From IMG/VR virus record IMGVR_UViG_3300021963_000069, positions 1-64,000 of that record: 64,000 nucleotides of DNA; one strand, 5' to 3'. The DNA comes from a virus. The notes under the pieces were generated by a model. It worked only from the letters and a program-made list of their open reading frames with translations. It made no database searches and was not told where the DNA came from. Each line of letters begins with the position of its first letter. Positions within the stretch are counted from its first letter, which is position 1. Positions 11,498 to 63,891 of the stretch are shown in pieces. The translations under genes were made by a program, and so were the position numbers.

Positions 11498-12015
11498 CGA
11501 TTTCCGTTTCTATACTGAATGGCATCTTTCATACTATTGAACTCTGAATTGTTTCCAGAAAGCAATCCATCATCTACAGTCATAACCTCATCAAACCCAG
11601 TTTTTTCAATAATCTTGGTTTTTATTTCCAGTTGTCTTTTCTCCTTTTGTATTCTTCTCAAAAAGGCATAATGTATAATTTGAGTAAAATACGCAAAAGG
11701 GTTGGTAGATTTCTCTGGGTCAAAATTATGAATATACTGAACGGAGTTTTCTATTCCATCAGAAATCATATCCTCTCTAAACATATAATTTACAAAGTTT
11801 GGTTTATATGATAAGTGAGTTGCTATTTTAAGAAAACATTCTCCAATATAATTTGGAATAAGTGGTTTTCCTTCCCATGGTTTAGATTTTGGAGGATACT
11901 CATCATATTTTTCATAATATTCTTGAGCAGCCTTCTTTACCTTATTACGATAAACAATAATAGCGTCTAATAACTCTCTATTATTCACATAATGTTCGGA
12001 GTTCTTCTTTGGCAT
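11494..12015 (-). CDS. g55: Late sigma factor
   Basis: HYVNN, YIGECFLKIA, NFDPEKSTNPFAYFTQI and AFLRRIQKEK. Confidence 0.95.
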   Translation of the reverse strand: MPKKNSEHYVNNRELLDAIIVYRNKVKKAAQEYYEKYDEYPPKSKPWEGKPLIPNYIGECFLKIATHLSYKPNFVNYMFREDMISDGIENSVQYIHNFDPEKSTNPFAYFTQIIHYAFLRRIQKEKRQLEIKTKIIEKTGFDEVMTVDDGLLSGNNSEFNSMKDAIQYRNGNR

Positions 12016-14051: not shown

Positions 14052-14693
14052 TTATTTGGTATTTTTAGAGGGCGAAACTTTTGCTGTAACTGGTGGTGGT
14101 TTAACTTGCATATAAACCATTCTTTTACCCCAATCTTTTGGAGTTATATTTTTTCCCGCAACATCTTTTGTGATTTGTGGAGAAACGTCGAATGAAACAT
14201 CTCTATTTACATTACCTGTTCTACCAAAATCTCCAACATCATTAATTTTTGCCTTTGTTTCCCTTGTTCTTGTTCCTTGAGGTTCTGCAGTTACTCTTAG
14301 TGTTGATCCATAAGGTATTGATGGTTTTCCTTCCTTTCCTTTTGGTGCCTGTCCTTCTTTATACTTAAACGGTACAGCAGCATTTCTTGTAGTCCAATTG
14401 TGTGGGTCTCCAGTTGCGGTTACTGTGTTTGGAGTAAATGCATCTCCGGGAGCATAAACACTTGCTTTTACTGGTTTCCAACCGTACCTTTTTTGTTCCG
14501 GACCGGTATGTGCTCTTGGAGTAAATCTACCTGTCGTTTTATTTAATTCACCAGGTTTATAATTTTTATATGCTAGAACTCTAGTATCAGGTTTTGGACT
14601 TGGTTTTGCTACCTGCGGTTTTGGTTTCGGCGCAAATGGATTCCAAAACTCTTGGATATTCGCATCAATACAAAACTCCTTAAATGTCTTCAT
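14052..14693 (-). CDS. Putative virion-internal protein with a C-terminal RlpA-like double-psi beta-barrel
   Basis: N-terminal MKTFKEF, then ASVY...TATGD...AAVP...IPYGSTLRVT...INDVG...FDVS. Confidence 0.55.
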   Translation of the reverse strand: MKTFKEFCIDANIQEFWNPFAPKPKPQVAKPSPKPDTRVLAYKNYKPGELNKTTGRFTPRAHTGPEQKRYGWKPVKASVYAPGDAFTPNTVTATGDPHNWTTRNAAVPFKYKEGQAPKGKEGKPSIPYGSTLRVTAEPQGTRTRETKAKINDVGDFGRTGNVNRDVSFDVSPQITKDVAGKNITPKDWGKRMVYMQVKPPPVTAKVSPSKNTK

Positions 14694-59993: not shown

Positions 59994-60734
59994 CTACCAC
60001 CCGAACTTGGTCGCGCAGATAGGACCAATCCCCCGCTCAATACTGCGCGGATCGGTTAACTCCCGCCCGCAACATGAGCACTCCCCGCTAACCTTACCGT
60101 AGCGTATTGCTGCGCTAAGGGGATCATTGGCGGCGCCCATTATGATCTCTTTAACTGTATCCGACAGGCGCGAATCGCAGCCCTGAGGTGTAACTTTCCC
60201 CAGGTACTTTGGTTTCATCCCATAATCGCCCTGTTCAAATTCGGTTTGAGATGTAACCCAAAGTGCGCTAAGATCGCGGTTTGGCTTAACATTAACACCC
60301 TCGAATCGTAGAGTTAGGCGCTTGGCGCCCTTAGACTTTGCTGCCTCGAAGGCATTAAACAGTGCCTCAAATTGCGAGGGTTCGTTAGATTTAACCGGCG
60401 CAACCTTAACATTATCAATCGCCAATTTATGCGCCCAAGCGTATTGTGACGCAGACAGTTTGTTAAATTTTTGCGCAAGATTCTGCGCAAAGTTAGAGCG
60501 CATCCCGCGCAGAGTTTCTAACACTTTCGCATCGCTAAGTGTAGAGGTGAAATTGATAGTTTCCCCCCGCGCAGTTACAGTAAAGTTCTGCGCGGCAACC
60601 GGTTCAGAGTTGGCAAGGTCAAACTCTAGGTTTGCCGCTGCCTGCGGATTTGTGCCATGTAGTCCGCGCAGAACCCGCTCCAGTAGGGCGTCAGTCTCAT
60701 TGTGGCGGGCAGCGGTGGCGGTGGTGGTGGTCAT
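59994..60734 (-). CDS. Early protein with a C-terminal DUF6011-like zinc finger
   Basis: CSCCGRELTDPRSIERGIGPIC. Promoter TTGCGG-N17-TACAAT upstream. Confidence 0.75.
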   Translation of the reverse strand: MTTTTATAARHNETDALLERVLRGLHGTNPQAAANLEFDLANSEPVAAQNFTVTARGETINFTSTLSDAKVLETLRGMRSNFAQNLAQKFNKLSASQYAWAHKLAIDNVKVAPVKSNEPSQFEALFNAFEAAKSKGAKRLTLRFEGVNVKPNRDLSALWVTSQTEFEQGDYGMKPKYLGKVTPQGCDSRLSDTVKEIIMGAANDPLSAAIRYGKVSGECSCCGRELTDPRSIERGIGPICATKFGW

Positions 60735-60959
60735 GGGGAAACCTTACGGGACCCCTAAATTGTACCACCTAGGGCGCCCAACCGCAAGCAATCTGGAAAA
60801 GTATAGCTAACTCTACGCAAGTTTAATATATTATTATTGCTTGGCAGGATGGGTGACCTGGTTTGTATCATCACGCCGCCCGCGTTCGTTTGATTGTCCC
60901 CATACTGTAGCACCGGGATGGGGGATCCCGCGACCCCCCTTGTGGAACTTAACAGATCG

Positions 60960-61160
60960 TCACACGGCGGTCCGCGCCGCAAGGCAAGCGCCCCAGAATC
61001 CAACCCAGGACTCGCCCTCCTGGCGCTCTAGAGTGCCCCAAGCGGCGCGGGCAGCGGCACGGCGACGGGCGCGGGGCATGGTGGCACTGGGGCACTGGCG
61101 CAGGGTGTGAAAGTCTGCCACGGCGGCAGCGGAGGCGGAGGCGGGGAAGTGGAAGATCAC
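60960..61160 (-). CDS. Small early hypothetical protein
   Basis: GTG start behind a TAGAAT -10 (61191-61186). Its leader resembles those of neighbouring early genes. Confidence 0.55.
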   Translation of the reverse strand: MIFHFPASASAAAVADFHTLRQCPSATMPRARRRAAARAAWGTLERQEGESWVGFWGACLAARTAV

Positions 61161-61261
61161 GGGTCGCGGTGCAGTTGACTCTTAAATTCTAGGAGCGGCG
61201 GATCCCCACCGTGGATCGAAACCAGAAAAAACCCATCAGCGATCCTAATGTATCAAACCGT

Positions 61262-61373
61262 TAAAATGCTTGACATGGGCCCCGGATTCCAGTAGAATTC
61301 TAGAGTACCGCACCTGCCTTGAAATAGTTGGATATAAAGAAAGAAAAAAAGCGTTAAGTATAACTTAACGCTT
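61262..61373 (+). repeat. Repeat unit copy 1: sigma70 promoter, CCTGCC element and TAAGTATAACTTA hairpin
   Basis: The first 38 nt are 36/38 identical to 63754-63791. TTGACA-N17-TAGAAT. Confidence 0.85.
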
Positions 61374-61378
61374 CGCAG

Positions 61379-61546
61379 TTAGATATGCGCTTTGCGCCAT
61401 TCCTCAGGTAATTGTTTATATTTTTCCCTGAAATATGCCGCGATCTCAACTGCACTTGAGACGCCAACATAGGCGCCTGCCCTATACATCGCCCACTCAA
61501 TCTGGCGGGTTTCGATGTTAACAGCGGGAGAGAAAGTTCTTGCCAT
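61379..61546 (-). CDS. Small hypothetical protein, 55 aa (MARTFSPAVNIETRQIEWAM...)
   Basis: Hand-translated. Flanked by the same intergenic elements as its neighbours. Confidence 0.6.
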   Translation of the reverse strand: MARTFSPAVNIETRQIEWAMYRAGAYVGVSSAVEIAAYFREKYKQLPEEWRKAHI

Positions 61547-61618
61547 AAACTATAAAGAAAGAAAGAAATGGGAAAGTGTAAAGAATGGGGGGATGATTGG
61601 TCCCCCCTTAAGTATAAC

Positions 61619-61855
61619 TTAGTGTGCCAGATAATCCTCCCAAAATTCAGCACCAAACTCTAGAGAATTGACCAGGTTGTCATAAATTACCTGCCCGTTT
61701 TCGGTCAGGGAATCATACCCATTCCACGCCATTCCGGGGCGGAAATAGTTACTGATACGTGACAACTTAGCGTAGAGTTCACTACACTGCCCGCCGTGAT
61801 AATCGGCGCAGAAAGCATAATGGGCGGATACTATGTCGAATCGGTCGAAATACAT
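61619..61855 (-). CDS. Small hypothetical protein (MYFDRFDIVSAHY...YHGGQ.S.LY)
   Basis: ORF-track ORF flanked by the repeated intergenic module. Confidence 0.7.
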   Translation of the reverse strand: MYFDRFDIVSAHYAFCADYHGGQCSELYAKLSRISNYFRPGMAWNGYDSLTENGQVIYDNLVNSLEFGAEFWEDYLAH

Positions 61856-61920
61856 GAGTCTAGAAAGTGTAGAGGAAAGTGTAAAGAATTGGAGGGGGAT
61901 TGCTCCCCCTTAAGTGTAAT

Positions 61921-62232
61921 CTAGACGCAATATCTCCCAACTACGATACGCTCACAGGATTCAATTATCTTAACTACAATCCCGCTGAAAAACGTTTCAT
62001 TCAATATACCTTGCCATCCGTCGCGCAAAATATCACCCTCGGTGCGCATAAAGTCTGCCAGAGTGTACACTTGCCCCCGATAGTTGAAGAACATCGCATA
62101 GGCATAGTCGAAATCTTGATCTTCCATCCAATCATACTCGGCGCGGAGTTTAGTATACTGGGCGCTGGAAAGTTGGAACGCGCTGATGAGATCGCGGGGA
62201 ACGTTGTTAGTCTTGACGGTGATAGTGGACAT
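61921..62232 (-). CDS. Small early hypothetical protein (MSTITVKTNNVPR...)
   Basis: Start moved to the ATG at 62232, downstream of TTGCGG-N17-TATTGT. Confidence 0.7.
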   Translation of the reverse strand: MSTITVKTNNVPRDLISAFQLSSAQYTKLRAEYDWMEDQDFDYAYAMFFNYRGQVYTLADFMRTEGDILRDGWQGILNETFFSGIVVKIIESCERIVVGRYCV

Positions 62233-62684
62233 GTCAGCGGTGCGTTTGACTTCATCACAATAAACCCTAGGACCGGATCCCGCAACCCCTAAACTGTAGC
62301 GTCCTGATACCAAAATCGAAACTCGTTTGATCAGCAACGCTAATGGTTCGAGACTCGCGGTTGGGCAGCAGACCGACTAGACTATGGGAACAACAGAAGA
62401 GGGAGCGCAGAGAGCGCGATGATACAAATCTAGTAACTCACCCTGCCATGGTATAATCTCGTAAAATATAAAGAATAAAGAATCAATTAAATGTAAAAAT
62501 ATAAAGAATAACAAATCGAATCATTCTTTATATCTTTATACTTAGTTAAATGTAATTTTATACTTAGTTAAATGTAAAGATATAAAGAATTAGACAGGAC
62601 TGAATGTAAAGAATAAACCACACCACTGACAATAAATTACATTCAATCCTGAGTAGTTCCTTATATCTTTAGATCTTTAGATCT

Positions 62685-62816
62685 TTATACCAACCTCGCA
62701 GGACTTCCGCAAGAGATATAAAACTCTACCATACGTTTTGCCTCTTCTAACGTATTAAATGATTGTCTGCGCCATTCACAATCGCCATACGGAATCTGAT
62801 AAGTTACAATAAACAT
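62685..62816 (-). CDS. Small cyanophage protein, 43 aa (MFIVTYQIPYGDCEWRRQSF...FYISCGSPA)
   Basis: Hand-translated; protein-like composition. Confidence 0.65.
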   Translation of the reverse strand: MFIVTYQIPYGDCEWRRQSFNTLEEAKRMVEFYISCGSPARLV

Positions 62817-62828
62817 GATGATGTAATG

Positions 62829-62944
62829 CGTGTCGAGATGATGTAATGAATGTGTGTCGAGATGTATGATATGTTATGATATGATACATCTCACGAGATG
62901 TGTATGTAATCTCGACGAGATTTGTGTATATTCTCGTCGAGATT
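62829..62944. repeat. Cluster of TCTCG(A/T)CGAGA palindromes and half-sites
   Basis: gtgtcgagatg x2, atctcacgagat, atctcgacgagat and ttctcgtcgagat. Confidence 0.75.
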
Positions 62945-62957
62945 TGTATCTTTATAT

Positions 62958-63263
62958 CTACTTTGCTGCCGCCCAGTTCATCACTTCCAGCATCTCTTCA
63001 GTTGTTACCCAACCCCTAACTTGATCACAATCGGGACAACCAGGGAATCCAGTTACAAACTCACCATCAGGGGCGATGACGGCAATCTCAGCATCAGGAG
63101 AATTGTGATCGCTCCACACTTTAACAGTGTCACCAACTTCTAGATCGGAAAACCTGTTTTCAAACCTGTTTTCACAGTAGTTACCAGCGCCAAACATAAC
63201 GCTGACGGTGAAACCGTTCGGGAAAGTTGTTTGGAATCCCTTTTGAGCGAAAGTCTTAAACAT
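62958..63263 (-). CDS. Small early hypothetical protein
   Basis: GF..TF.NGFTVSV.FG.GNYC...AEIAV...V.GW.T pattern common in phage early genes. Confidence 0.75.
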   Translation of the reverse strand: MFKTFAQKGFQTTFPNGFTVSVMFGAGNYCENRFENRFSDLEVGDTVKVWSDHNSPDAEIAVIAPDGEFVTGFPGCPDCDQVRGWVTTEEMLEVMNWAAAK

Positions 63264-63344
63264 GGTCGGGTCCGGCGGTTGACTTGTTAAGTATAGGAGA
63301 TGGATGGGGGGTCGCGGGACCCCCCGGTGACACTTAACAGATTG

Positions 63345-63641
63345 TCACACCTCCACCGATTCGATGTCACCGTGGCGCCGAGCATGGGCGATCAGCGACC
63401 CCCAGGAGACGCTGGAACGTGCTTCCGGGTCCCCCAGAAGGTCAAACCACTTAGCAGCGGTCGCATCGTCTTCGACGGCGAACCTGTATACCTTGGGACT
63501 GGTGCGCCACTGGATCAGCGCATCATAAGCGTCGGTGCCATCAGCAGCAGGGACCAGTTCCAGCATCTTGATGGCGCCGGACTCTTCAGGGGTGAAGACC
63601 CAGGAGACTTTCAGGGAGTGGGCGGTGAGCGTTGCGGGCAT
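63345..63641 (-). CDS. KTSC-like small early protein
   Basis: ESGAI..LE...I.W..S.KVYRF.V...W..LL...SWG.LI resembles the KTSC domain. ATG at 63641. Confidence 0.5.
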   Translation of the reverse strand: MPATLTAHSLKVSWVFTPEESGAIKMLELVPAADGTDAYDALIQWRTSPKVYRFAVEDDATAAKWFDLLGDPEARSSVSWGSLIAHARRHGDIESVEV

Positions 63642-63700
63642 GGTCGGTTTTGTTTGGAACTCCCATATCCTAGACCATTGGGAACCCATCCGGACGGTCC

Positions 63701-63733
63701 AAACCTGAAGAAAACCTGAAGAAAACCTGAAGA
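63701..63733. repeat. Three exact 11-bp tandem repeats (AAACCTGAAGA) between divergent promoters
   Basis: Units start at 63701, 63712 and 63723. Confidence 0.9.
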
Positions 63734-63753
63734 AACCAATTGTTAAGAGTTGC

Positions 63754-63873
63754 TAAAATGCTTGACAGGGGCCCCGGATTCCAGTAGACTTGATCCGTAC
63801 CCACCCTGCCCTGAAATAGTTAGATATAAAAAAATATAAAAAAAGAAGGGCACTAAGTATAACTTAGCACCCT
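63754..63873 (+). repeat. Repeat unit copy 2: sigma70 promoter, CCTGCC element and TAAGTATAACTTA hairpin
   Basis: TTGACA-N17-TAGACT. Matches 61262-61373. Confidence 0.85.
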
Positions 63874-63891
63874 TGAGTTTGCTATACTAAC

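Follow-up and report, generated by a model that had tools for sequence, protein, structure and literature searches.

A repeated promoter-leader unit at gene junctions of T4-like cyanophages as a candidate source of short antisense RNAs

A repeated non-coding unit, in which a promoter is joined to a conserved 5' leader, occurs near the end of the window analyzed here, the 64,000 nt that form the start of a 93.5-kb linear virus contig (IMG/VR record IMGVR_UViG_3300021963_000069). Its copies belong to a sequence family whose carriers are freshwater and estuarine T4-like cyanophages. Their promoters are conserved, a small hairpin in the leader belongs to the strand of the element, most copies point against the neighboring genes, and these genes are exchanged among relatives. 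We give a probability of about one half to the reading that the unit launches short, mostly antisense RNAs at the junctions of early-gene cassettes. That an RNA is made, where it ends and what it does is what we infer.

The region had attracted attention in an initial annotation by four copies of an element with the core CCTGCC. Direct reading of the sequence located copies A to D where they had been placed, A on the coding (minus) strand and B, C and D opposed to it. The 31-nt stretches of A (60872-60842, minus) and C (62418-62448, plus) are identical at exactly 25 positions, the -10 boxes TACAGT, TAGAAT, TAGACT and TAGACT are present, TTGACA-N17 stands ahead of B (61270) and D (63762), and an A/T-rich tract lies behind every one of the four copies. 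All four are real, but the count was incomplete, as the contig has two more copies just beyond the window, at 64.7 kb and at 67.0 kb. The core also had to be shortened: CCTGC is kept, and the final C is found in only 50% of the copies (A in 33%). Copies were searched for with R1, a covariance model derived from 14 long-form copies with the hairpin as structure and built without phage B3. R1 places six copies in the contig, all within 60.8-67.0 kb, and found no further copy on the rest of the 93.5 kb. Copy A contributed to the model, hence its R1 score is not independent, and short forms were accepted by promoter and context rather than by R1 score. Two patterns taken from relatives each had two exact matches in the window against 0.00 expected from 100 shuffles; therefore, the copies are not a product of chance. 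The features of the six copies are listed below, in the numbering of the window or, where so marked, of the contig.

60826-60892, minus, same strand as the genes: copy A, long form (R1 84.9 bits, E 1e-21)
60885-60873, minus: hairpin of copy A, ACGC-GGGCG-GCGT, then GATGATACAAA
60848-60843, minus: core CCTGCC of copy A, in the leader of the gene for a 246-aa DUF6011 protein
60904-60965, minus: promoter cassette of copy A with palindromic box (GTGAC...), GC hairpin and -10 box TACAGT at 60909-60904
61270-61298, plus: TTGACA-N17-TAGAAT, the promoter of copy B, in agreement with the consensus at 11 of 12 positions, A-rich stretch upstream
61293-61298, plus: -10 box TAGAAT of copy B, read from the sequence
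61305-61347, plus: copy B, short form, starting with GTACCGCACCTGCC, core at 61313-61318, then TTGAAATAGTT and an A-rich tract
61348-61374, minus: hairpin common to copy B and a 55-aa gene (61379-61546), terminator of this gene with a U-tract after it
62378-62383, plus: -10 box TAGACT of copy C, with counterparts in relatives at equal distance from the hairpin
62398-62464, plus, antisense to the genes: copy C, long form (R1 73.9 bits)
62405-62417, plus: hairpin of copy C, GCGC-AGAGA-GCGC, then GATGATACAAA from 62418
62442-62447, plus: core CCTGCC of copy C, then TGGTATAAT
63762-63790, plus: promoter of copy D, TTGACA-N17-TAGACT, -10 box TAGACT at 63785-63790
63797-63845, plus: copy D, short form, starting with GTACCCACCCTGCC, core at 63805-63810, then CTGAAATAGTT and an A-rich tract
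63846-63874, minus: hairpin common to copy D and a Kyano_Gp96-like gene (63892-64215), terminator of this gene
Contig 64733-64803, plus: fifth copy (E), long-form variant, beyond the window end
Contig 66990-67035, plus: sixth copy, third short form, with TTGACA-N17-TAGACT at 66970, beyond the window end

Anatomy of the unit and its functional strand

Two forms of the unit can be distinguished. The short form, to which B, D and the 67.0-kb copy belong, has TTGACA-N17-TAGAMT behind an A-rich stretch and, after six bases, GTACC-nnn-CCTGCC-nn-GAAATAGTT with an A-rich tract downstream, i.e. a near-consensus host-type promoter set directly on the core. The long form, seen in A, C and the 64.7-kb variant, opens with a -10 box; a purine-rich start (…ACAA…GGGA…), a 4-bp GC hairpin and GATGAYACAAA follow, and …ACyyAyCCTGCC is succeeded by A/T-rich sequence with AATAAT and an A-run. 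Only the core and the part downstream of it are common to both forms; the core of the family reads AC-yy-Ay-CCTGC followed by AATAAT. At position D, the syntenic relative L012 has a long-form head on an identical tail, and a contig from an RNA library joins 62447 to 63831, matching the head-tail joint of L012 at D. Hence, heads are interchangeable at the core. The short form, copy B included, is part of a 133-nt repeat family (D1).

Three of the few near-consensus sigma-70 sites in the 93.5 kb drive the short form. Across relatives, the hexamers of this promoter are kept and the 17-nt spacer varies (ggggccccggattccag to ggacacccgaaaacgac and others), a combination which, judged from sequence conservation, points to a promoter under selection. 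Long forms have their -10 box at a fixed distance from the hairpin across relatives.

Covariation assigns the small hairpin to one strand. In the model-based alignment of 46 virus copies, 98.3% of the cells of the 4-bp hairpin hold standard pairs and three of the four pairs are changed on both sides. Covariation amounted to 0.275 compared to a shuffled mean of 0.087, was reached by none of 500 shuffles, and did not exceed 0.085 when the partners were slid. The corresponding alignment of 90 metagenome copies had all of its 317 cells paired, again with three of four pairs changed on both sides, and a covariation of 0.512 (shuffled mean 0.153, reached by 0 of 500 shuffles; at most 0.17 with slid partners). 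The outermost pair is G-U in three of the virus copies and in seven of the metagenome copies, and A-C was seen in neither set. Since a G-U pair on the element strand is an A-C mismatch on the other strand, the hairpin is selected on the element strand. It also folds better on this strand in 21 of 28 copies. RNAalifold applied to a plain MAFFT alignment found no structure because the hairpins of the subtypes are out of register, which was solved by the model-based alignment.

The larger hairpin downstream of the core behaves differently from the small one and folds better on the gene strand (28 of 45 copies). On the element strand it is preceded by 5.4 A in 8 nt, which form the U-tract of the gene strand, and followed by a mean of 2.8 T in 8 nt, and a terminator scan of the locus called the shared hairpins at copies B and D on the minus strand only. 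We therefore regard the downstream hairpin as the terminator of the neighboring gene; the element transcript is without a proper terminator of its own. The distance from the core to this hairpin clusters at 25-34 nt (63 of 130 copies with a clean hairpin). RNA-library contigs cover the element regions, which is weak evidence as carry-over of DNA is possible.

Several other signals were considered. A sigma-dependent pause or a -10 box at AATAAT was rejected, because its last T is conserved in only 77% of the copies and its third position in 96%, unlike the pattern of a -10 box. Pairing of the purine-rich start with a CCCUG core occurs in some folds, is absent from A-type copies and was rejected as well. 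A block TATAAAGA or TATAAAAA is found on the element strand of nearly all copies 10-20 nt before the shared hairpin, for example at 61331-61338 and 63822-63829. It agrees with the T4-type late promoter TATAAATA in 6-7 of 8 positions and may merely be the complement of an extended U-tract.

Placement, gene exchange and occurrence in related phages

Across the loci, genes run mostly in one direction and the elements mostly in the opposite one, and about 70% of the elements face the next open reading frame (ORF) according to a crude ORF call. Five of the six promoters in this contig are opposed to the genes and directed toward the previous terminator. The exception is conserved: copy A and its counterparts, which precede the equivalent DUF6011 gene in L012 and L047, are oriented in gene sense and lie in the leader of this gene. 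At L043:4110-4295, two elements, one of each form, are directed at a common hairpin and enclose no gene; therefore, the units can stand alone.

Compared to L012, the element segments are 94-98% identical (98% for the copy C segment), versus 80-90% for the flanking genes, and two genes at 61.65-62.2 kb are replaced outright. Further contig joints (61336 to 61877 and 61165 to 62253) fall in conserved intergenic blocks. Element copies mark the borders of gene swaps among relatives, which helps to annotate these genomes.

Pattern scans of IMG/VR supplied L012 and L037-L048. R1 identified 46 distinct copies in related virus loci and 90 distinct copies in 80 metagenome loci; the latter loci were retrieved by the core pattern, hence part of the core invariance seen there is by construction. 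A complete 258-kb relative has three strong and up to three weak copies, all within 8 kb. In the metagenome contig L115, nearly every intergenic gap holds a copy (10 in 8.4 kb), and the metagenome contig L149 has 8 copies in 8 kb.

Named phages carry the unit as well. In phage B3 (B3 and B23 genome accessions: MN695334, MN695335), six or more copies with scores of 26-41 bits are found over 114-121 kb, all on the minus strand of a plus-strand genome and with the layout seen here. In S-SRM01 (NC_070963) one unannotated copy lies antisense directly past gp179 (90129-90193, minus) and shows box, -10 box, hairpin, core, A-run and hairpin in this order; its 27.7 bits are at noise level, and it was recognized by its layout. 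R1 found no copy above noise in S-SKS1, S-CRM01, S-SCSM2R, S-H9-1 and S-WAM2. A scan of 185,579 prokaryote species genomes for exact matches of the core pattern returned 57, approximately the number expected by chance, in unrelated taxa and with none above 27.5 bits. The family thus looks phage-restricted. As chance matches in these genomes score up to 27.5 bits, an R1 score under about 28 bits is by itself no evidence for a copy.

Similarity searches added little. Two element queries had no blastn match among 50,697 phage records (for blastn the conserved core is too short), and 34 of 35 matches of the 15-mer CCGGATTCCAGTAGA in IMG/VR were due to chance. Rfam cmscan of 18 kb around the locus with E up to 1 returned five weak unrelated matches, all below the gathering scores. 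Non-coding RNAs on record for cyanophages are CfrI, PhotoRC-II, wcaG, manA, glnA and the abiF motif (PMC9964418), none of which matches the element. The genome announcement of B3 and B23 mentions only short repeat regions (PMC7171214), and no description of the unit was found in the searched databases and papers.

Proposed antisense action and alternative explanations

As a source of antisense RNAs, the unit would be read by host RNA polymerase from TTGACA-N17-TAGAMT in the short form or from the phage box-hairpin-(-10) cassette in the long form. The leader would consist of the small GC hairpin (long form only), a C/A-rich unpaired stretch up to CCUGC, AAUAAU and an A-run. Most copies oppose the genes, and the transcript would enter the terminator hairpin of the preceding gene. 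As no U-tract follows on the element strand, it probably continues some way into the 3' end of that gene. The resulting short antisense RNAs, all with one 5' leader, would pair with the 3' end of the neighboring early mRNA and with read-through transcripts. The fate of the mRNA may be altered either by protection from RNase E or by marking for cleavage by a double-strand RNase, and convergent transcription would limit read-through to the next cassette. This reading accounts for the promoters and their backward orientation, for the strand to which the hairpin belongs, for the constant distance to the terminator and the lack of a U-tract, and, in some genomes, for the density of about one unit per gene.

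OOP RNA of phage lambda, a 77-nt antisense RNA transcribed from pO and convergent on cII, provides a similar case. In both, a constitutive host-type promoter is located just downstream of a gene and in antisense to it; own promoter and convergent placement are seen here, and an overlap with the gene is suggested by the missing U-tract. Lambda has one copy with a gene-specific sequence, whereas here many copies share one 5' leader and have varied neighbors. Antisense RNAs shield mRNAs from RNase E in cyanophage infection (PMC3113571). The antisense RNAs of P-SSP7 described there resemble the proposed ones as phage antisense transcription in picocyanobacteria affecting mRNA stability. They differ in forming a broad antisense cover of a T7-like genome instead of a repeated unit with a shared leader.

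A number of observations weigh against this reading. The leader lies beyond the mRNA terminator and is nevertheless the most conserved part of the unit, which is unexplained by antisense action in cis. Copy A and its relatives are oriented in gene sense in an mRNA leader; antisense action is therefore not the whole story. C and E lack an immediate hairpin and are followed instead by a 200-240-nt A/T-rich repeat region, and a clean shared hairpin was located in just 63 of 130 copies. Orientation was counted from ORFs, a measure that is noisy where DNA is GC-rich, and both alignments behind the pair counts had been fitted to the structure of the model, which biases these counts toward the hairpin. 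The RNA data are unstranded contigs without transcript ends and do not prove transcription.

The high conservation of the leader together with the copy heading an mRNA suggests that the leader itself is recognized by something. An extension of the antisense reading would be a modular system in which one 5' handle (hairpin, C/A-rich CCUGC stretch and AAUAAU) is joined to a gene-specific antisense body at each junction, and the handle recruits a common factor, a phage or host RNA-binding protein or RNase, to all early mRNAs. The copy in the DUF6011 leader would then be a feedback site of the factor itself. We consider this arrangement improbable.

The sequence family had initially been proposed to represent either an unknown class of small RNAs (sRNAs) or clustered R-loop origins. 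The former is supported in large part by the own promoters, the element-strand hairpin, the unpaired stretch, the absence of a conserved peptide and the lack of Rfam matches, although a discrete trans-acting sRNA or decoy appears doubtful. Such an RNA of 70-130 nt would end at the shared hairpin, with many copies raising its dose, and its …ACyyAyCCUGC…AAUAAU stretch would either base-pair with an mRNA or sRNA of the host or act by titrating an RNase or RNA-binding protein. The order of 5' hairpin, conserved unpaired motif and 3' hairpin is that of Yfr1 (PMC6778093), an RNA of the host lineage of these phages with a conserved C/U-rich unpaired motif between two stem-loops. Conservation peaks in the unpaired stretch and not in the part overlapping the neighboring gene, the core is all that both forms share, and the units converging on one hairpin in L043 are gene-free. 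However, no U-tract follows the hairpin on the element strand, and a search of the phage genome for 10-mer complements yielded chance-level matches only. Accessibility is unremarkable, with a predicted unpaired probability of 0.40 for the core and of 0.62 for the stretch versus 0.53 in shuffled sequences. Yfr1 furthermore has a different motif sequence and, like the remainder of Rfam, did not match, the element was not found in the cellular genomes scanned, and its 3' hairpin is the terminator of the opposite strand.

Gene exchange at the copies raises the question whether the unit matters mainly as DNA, i.e. as a junction for shuffling and insulation similar to the promoter(early)-stem-loop (PeSL) cassettes, at which recombination moves genes and the backward promoter blocks read-through, the RNA product being without a role. 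The gene content of relatives differs exactly between conserved intergenic blocks, the contig joints 62447-63831, 61336-61877 and 61165-62253 and the long-form head on the same tail at D in L012 fit such an exchange, and PeSLs act in this way in T4-type coliphages (PMC2839356, PMC4122927). Compensatory changes and G-U pairs, however, imply a selected RNA or single-strand fold, which recombinational homogenization would not yield, and the promoter hexamers are kept despite the drifting spacer. On balance, we regard a pure DNA junction as a rather poor bet. The unit resembles the PeSL cassettes of RB49/phi1, T4/PST and KVP40/nt-1 (PMC2839356, PMC4122927) in several respects. Both are repeated composite motifs of a stem-loop terminator and a sigma-70-type promoter, both lie between small ORFs of the T4-type hyperplastic region, here ORFs without known families, and close relatives differ in gene content at both by gain, loss or replacement. 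The PeSL promoter is oriented in gene sense and drives the next ORF, whereas five of six promoters point backward here. Unlike PeSLs, which have not been reported as RNA genes, the unit has a conserved leader on its transcribed side with a covarying hairpin. The PeSL description suits the nearby gene-sense box-hairpin-(-10) cassettes better; these are a separate feature. If the antisense RNAs are made, abundant freshwater cyanophages of a whole lineage use a repeated RNA unit to control or insulate their early genes, and an RNA layer is added to the PeSL cassette-shuffling view of T4-type genome plasticity. This is directly testable, as the unit is present in cultured phages including B3 and S-SRM01 (NC_070963).

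T4 oriF and oriG, the model for the proposed R-loop origins, are few per genome and combine a MotA-type middle promoter with a DNA unwinding element of about 50 bp. Each copy of our unit likewise has a promoter followed by an A/T-rich tract, and purine-rich RNA is able to form stable DNA hybrids. The density of copies speaks against bidirectional origins made of a promoter and an unwinding element: up to 10 in 8.4 kb in L115, 6 in 6.2 kb here and at least 6 in B3. Moreover, the promoters are of other types (TTGACA-N17-TAGAMT or box-hairpin-(-10)), the A/T tract is short (about 30 nt), is the complement of the U-tract of a terminator and ends in a GC hairpin, the RNA is C-rich rather than G-rich at the core, and cumulative GC skew has no turn at the locus. 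The layout of one copy pointing left and three pointing right, initially taken as bidirectional, dissolves as the leftward copy simply sits in the leader of a gene. Replication origins are thus hardly credible here.

A coding function is likewise hardly plausible. The long form would encode a tiny peptide (~M-I/T-Q-T/N-K-T/S-P/L-T/I-L-P) from the ATG in GATGAT to just past CCTGCC, and several copies do have a 10-codon frame with TAA or TGA directly after the core and a purine-rich stretch upstream of the hairpin. Yet in copy C the ATG inside GATGAT runs into TAG at codon 5, as had been noted initially, and this copy, L044 and L038 all stop at codon 5 or 6. L042:8071 and copies of the GACGAC type have no start codon, the short forms begin transcription beyond the would-be start codon, and substitutions affect first and second codon positions. 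With frames broken in several copies, the original statement that no peptide is conserved holds. It is also very unlikely that the gene strand is the functional one, either as a long leader or as a post-terminator promoter (T-run and TATACT) for the next gene. TATACT or TATAGT is found behind the U-tract in many long-form copies, but the hexamer of the short form ends in C (TATATC, TATACC), which is not tolerated by a -10 box, the next gene has its own cassette promoter downstream, and the seven G-U pairs of the hairpin would become A-C mismatches.

Genome context and neighboring features

Large genes of the window encode T4-type capsid, portal, sheath, terminase, gp6 baseplate wedge and helicase, and one small gene (63892-64215 of the contig, minus) has a Pfam match to Kyano_Gp96; hence, the contig is a T4-like cyanomyovirus. 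Nearly every gene of the contig is on the minus strand. Judged by gp6, S-SKS1 (70.5%) is the nearest named phage, followed by S-SRM01 (65.6%), a phage of fresh water. Near-identical DNA was found in a marine sample, which is probably the source, and also in lake, freshwater and drinking-water metagenomes. G+C content is about 33% up to 60 kb and about 50% over 60-67 kb, where a run of small genes lies directly upstream of the baseplate genes; searches of Pfam, PHROGs and PDB gave no function for these small proteins and the DUF6011 protein, and a tRNA search found none. The corresponding region of the 258-kb relatives (L038, L039, L041) has 53-58% G+C. The small genes and GC-rich cassettes may have an origin different from that of the remaining genome.

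The DUF6011 gene (59994-60734, minus; 246 aa), whose leader always holds a gene-sense copy of the element, encodes a C-terminal Cys-rich motif (PF19474, E 4e-15) and matches phrog_4046. Comparison with PDB sequences gave nothing further. From its sequence, the protein may be a nucleic-acid binder tied to the element. About 200 nt past the third short-form promoter, an ORF on the plus strand (contig 67238-67687) encodes an HNH-type homing endonuclease, and the backward promoter at 67.0 kb may therefore also feed this gene.

The A/T-rich DNA after copies C (62450-62690) and E (contig 64790-64960) extends over 170-240 nt and contains repeated units TTTATACTTAGTTAAATGTAAAGAATAAAGA in direct and inverted orientation. 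A long hairpin with 38-nt arms (62572-62609 and 62637-62674) is located in the stretch past copy C, where L012 matches 62551-62650 with 98-100% identity. This hairpin follows a 43-aa gene on the minus strand and has a U-rich run behind it.

Palindrome arrays of TCTCGTCGAGA / TCTCGACGAGA with GATGTAATGA-type repeats are found upstream of A/T-rich small genes, at 62817-62957 of the window and in the contig segments L001:9150-9270, 11680-11760 and 14060-14400, the largest being at about 70 kb. They look like a second promoter/operator class apart from the GC-rich box-hairpin cassettes.

The latter, gene-sense promoter cassettes occur at 60918-60965 and 63277-63350 of the window and in the repeat families D2, D5 and D11, of which D5 and D11 show a layout like that of the copy A cassette ahead of the protein genes of this region. 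They consist of a palindromic box, a variable GC hairpin, about 10 nt, TATACT and TAACAAGTCAACC. The box is GTGACA-N10-TGTCAC, or GTGCCA…TGGCAC with both arms altered together. Long-form elements employ a box-hairpin-(-10) cassette of this gene-sense kind. In the cassette at 65580 of the contig, TTGACC is located in the hairpin loop at -35 distance.

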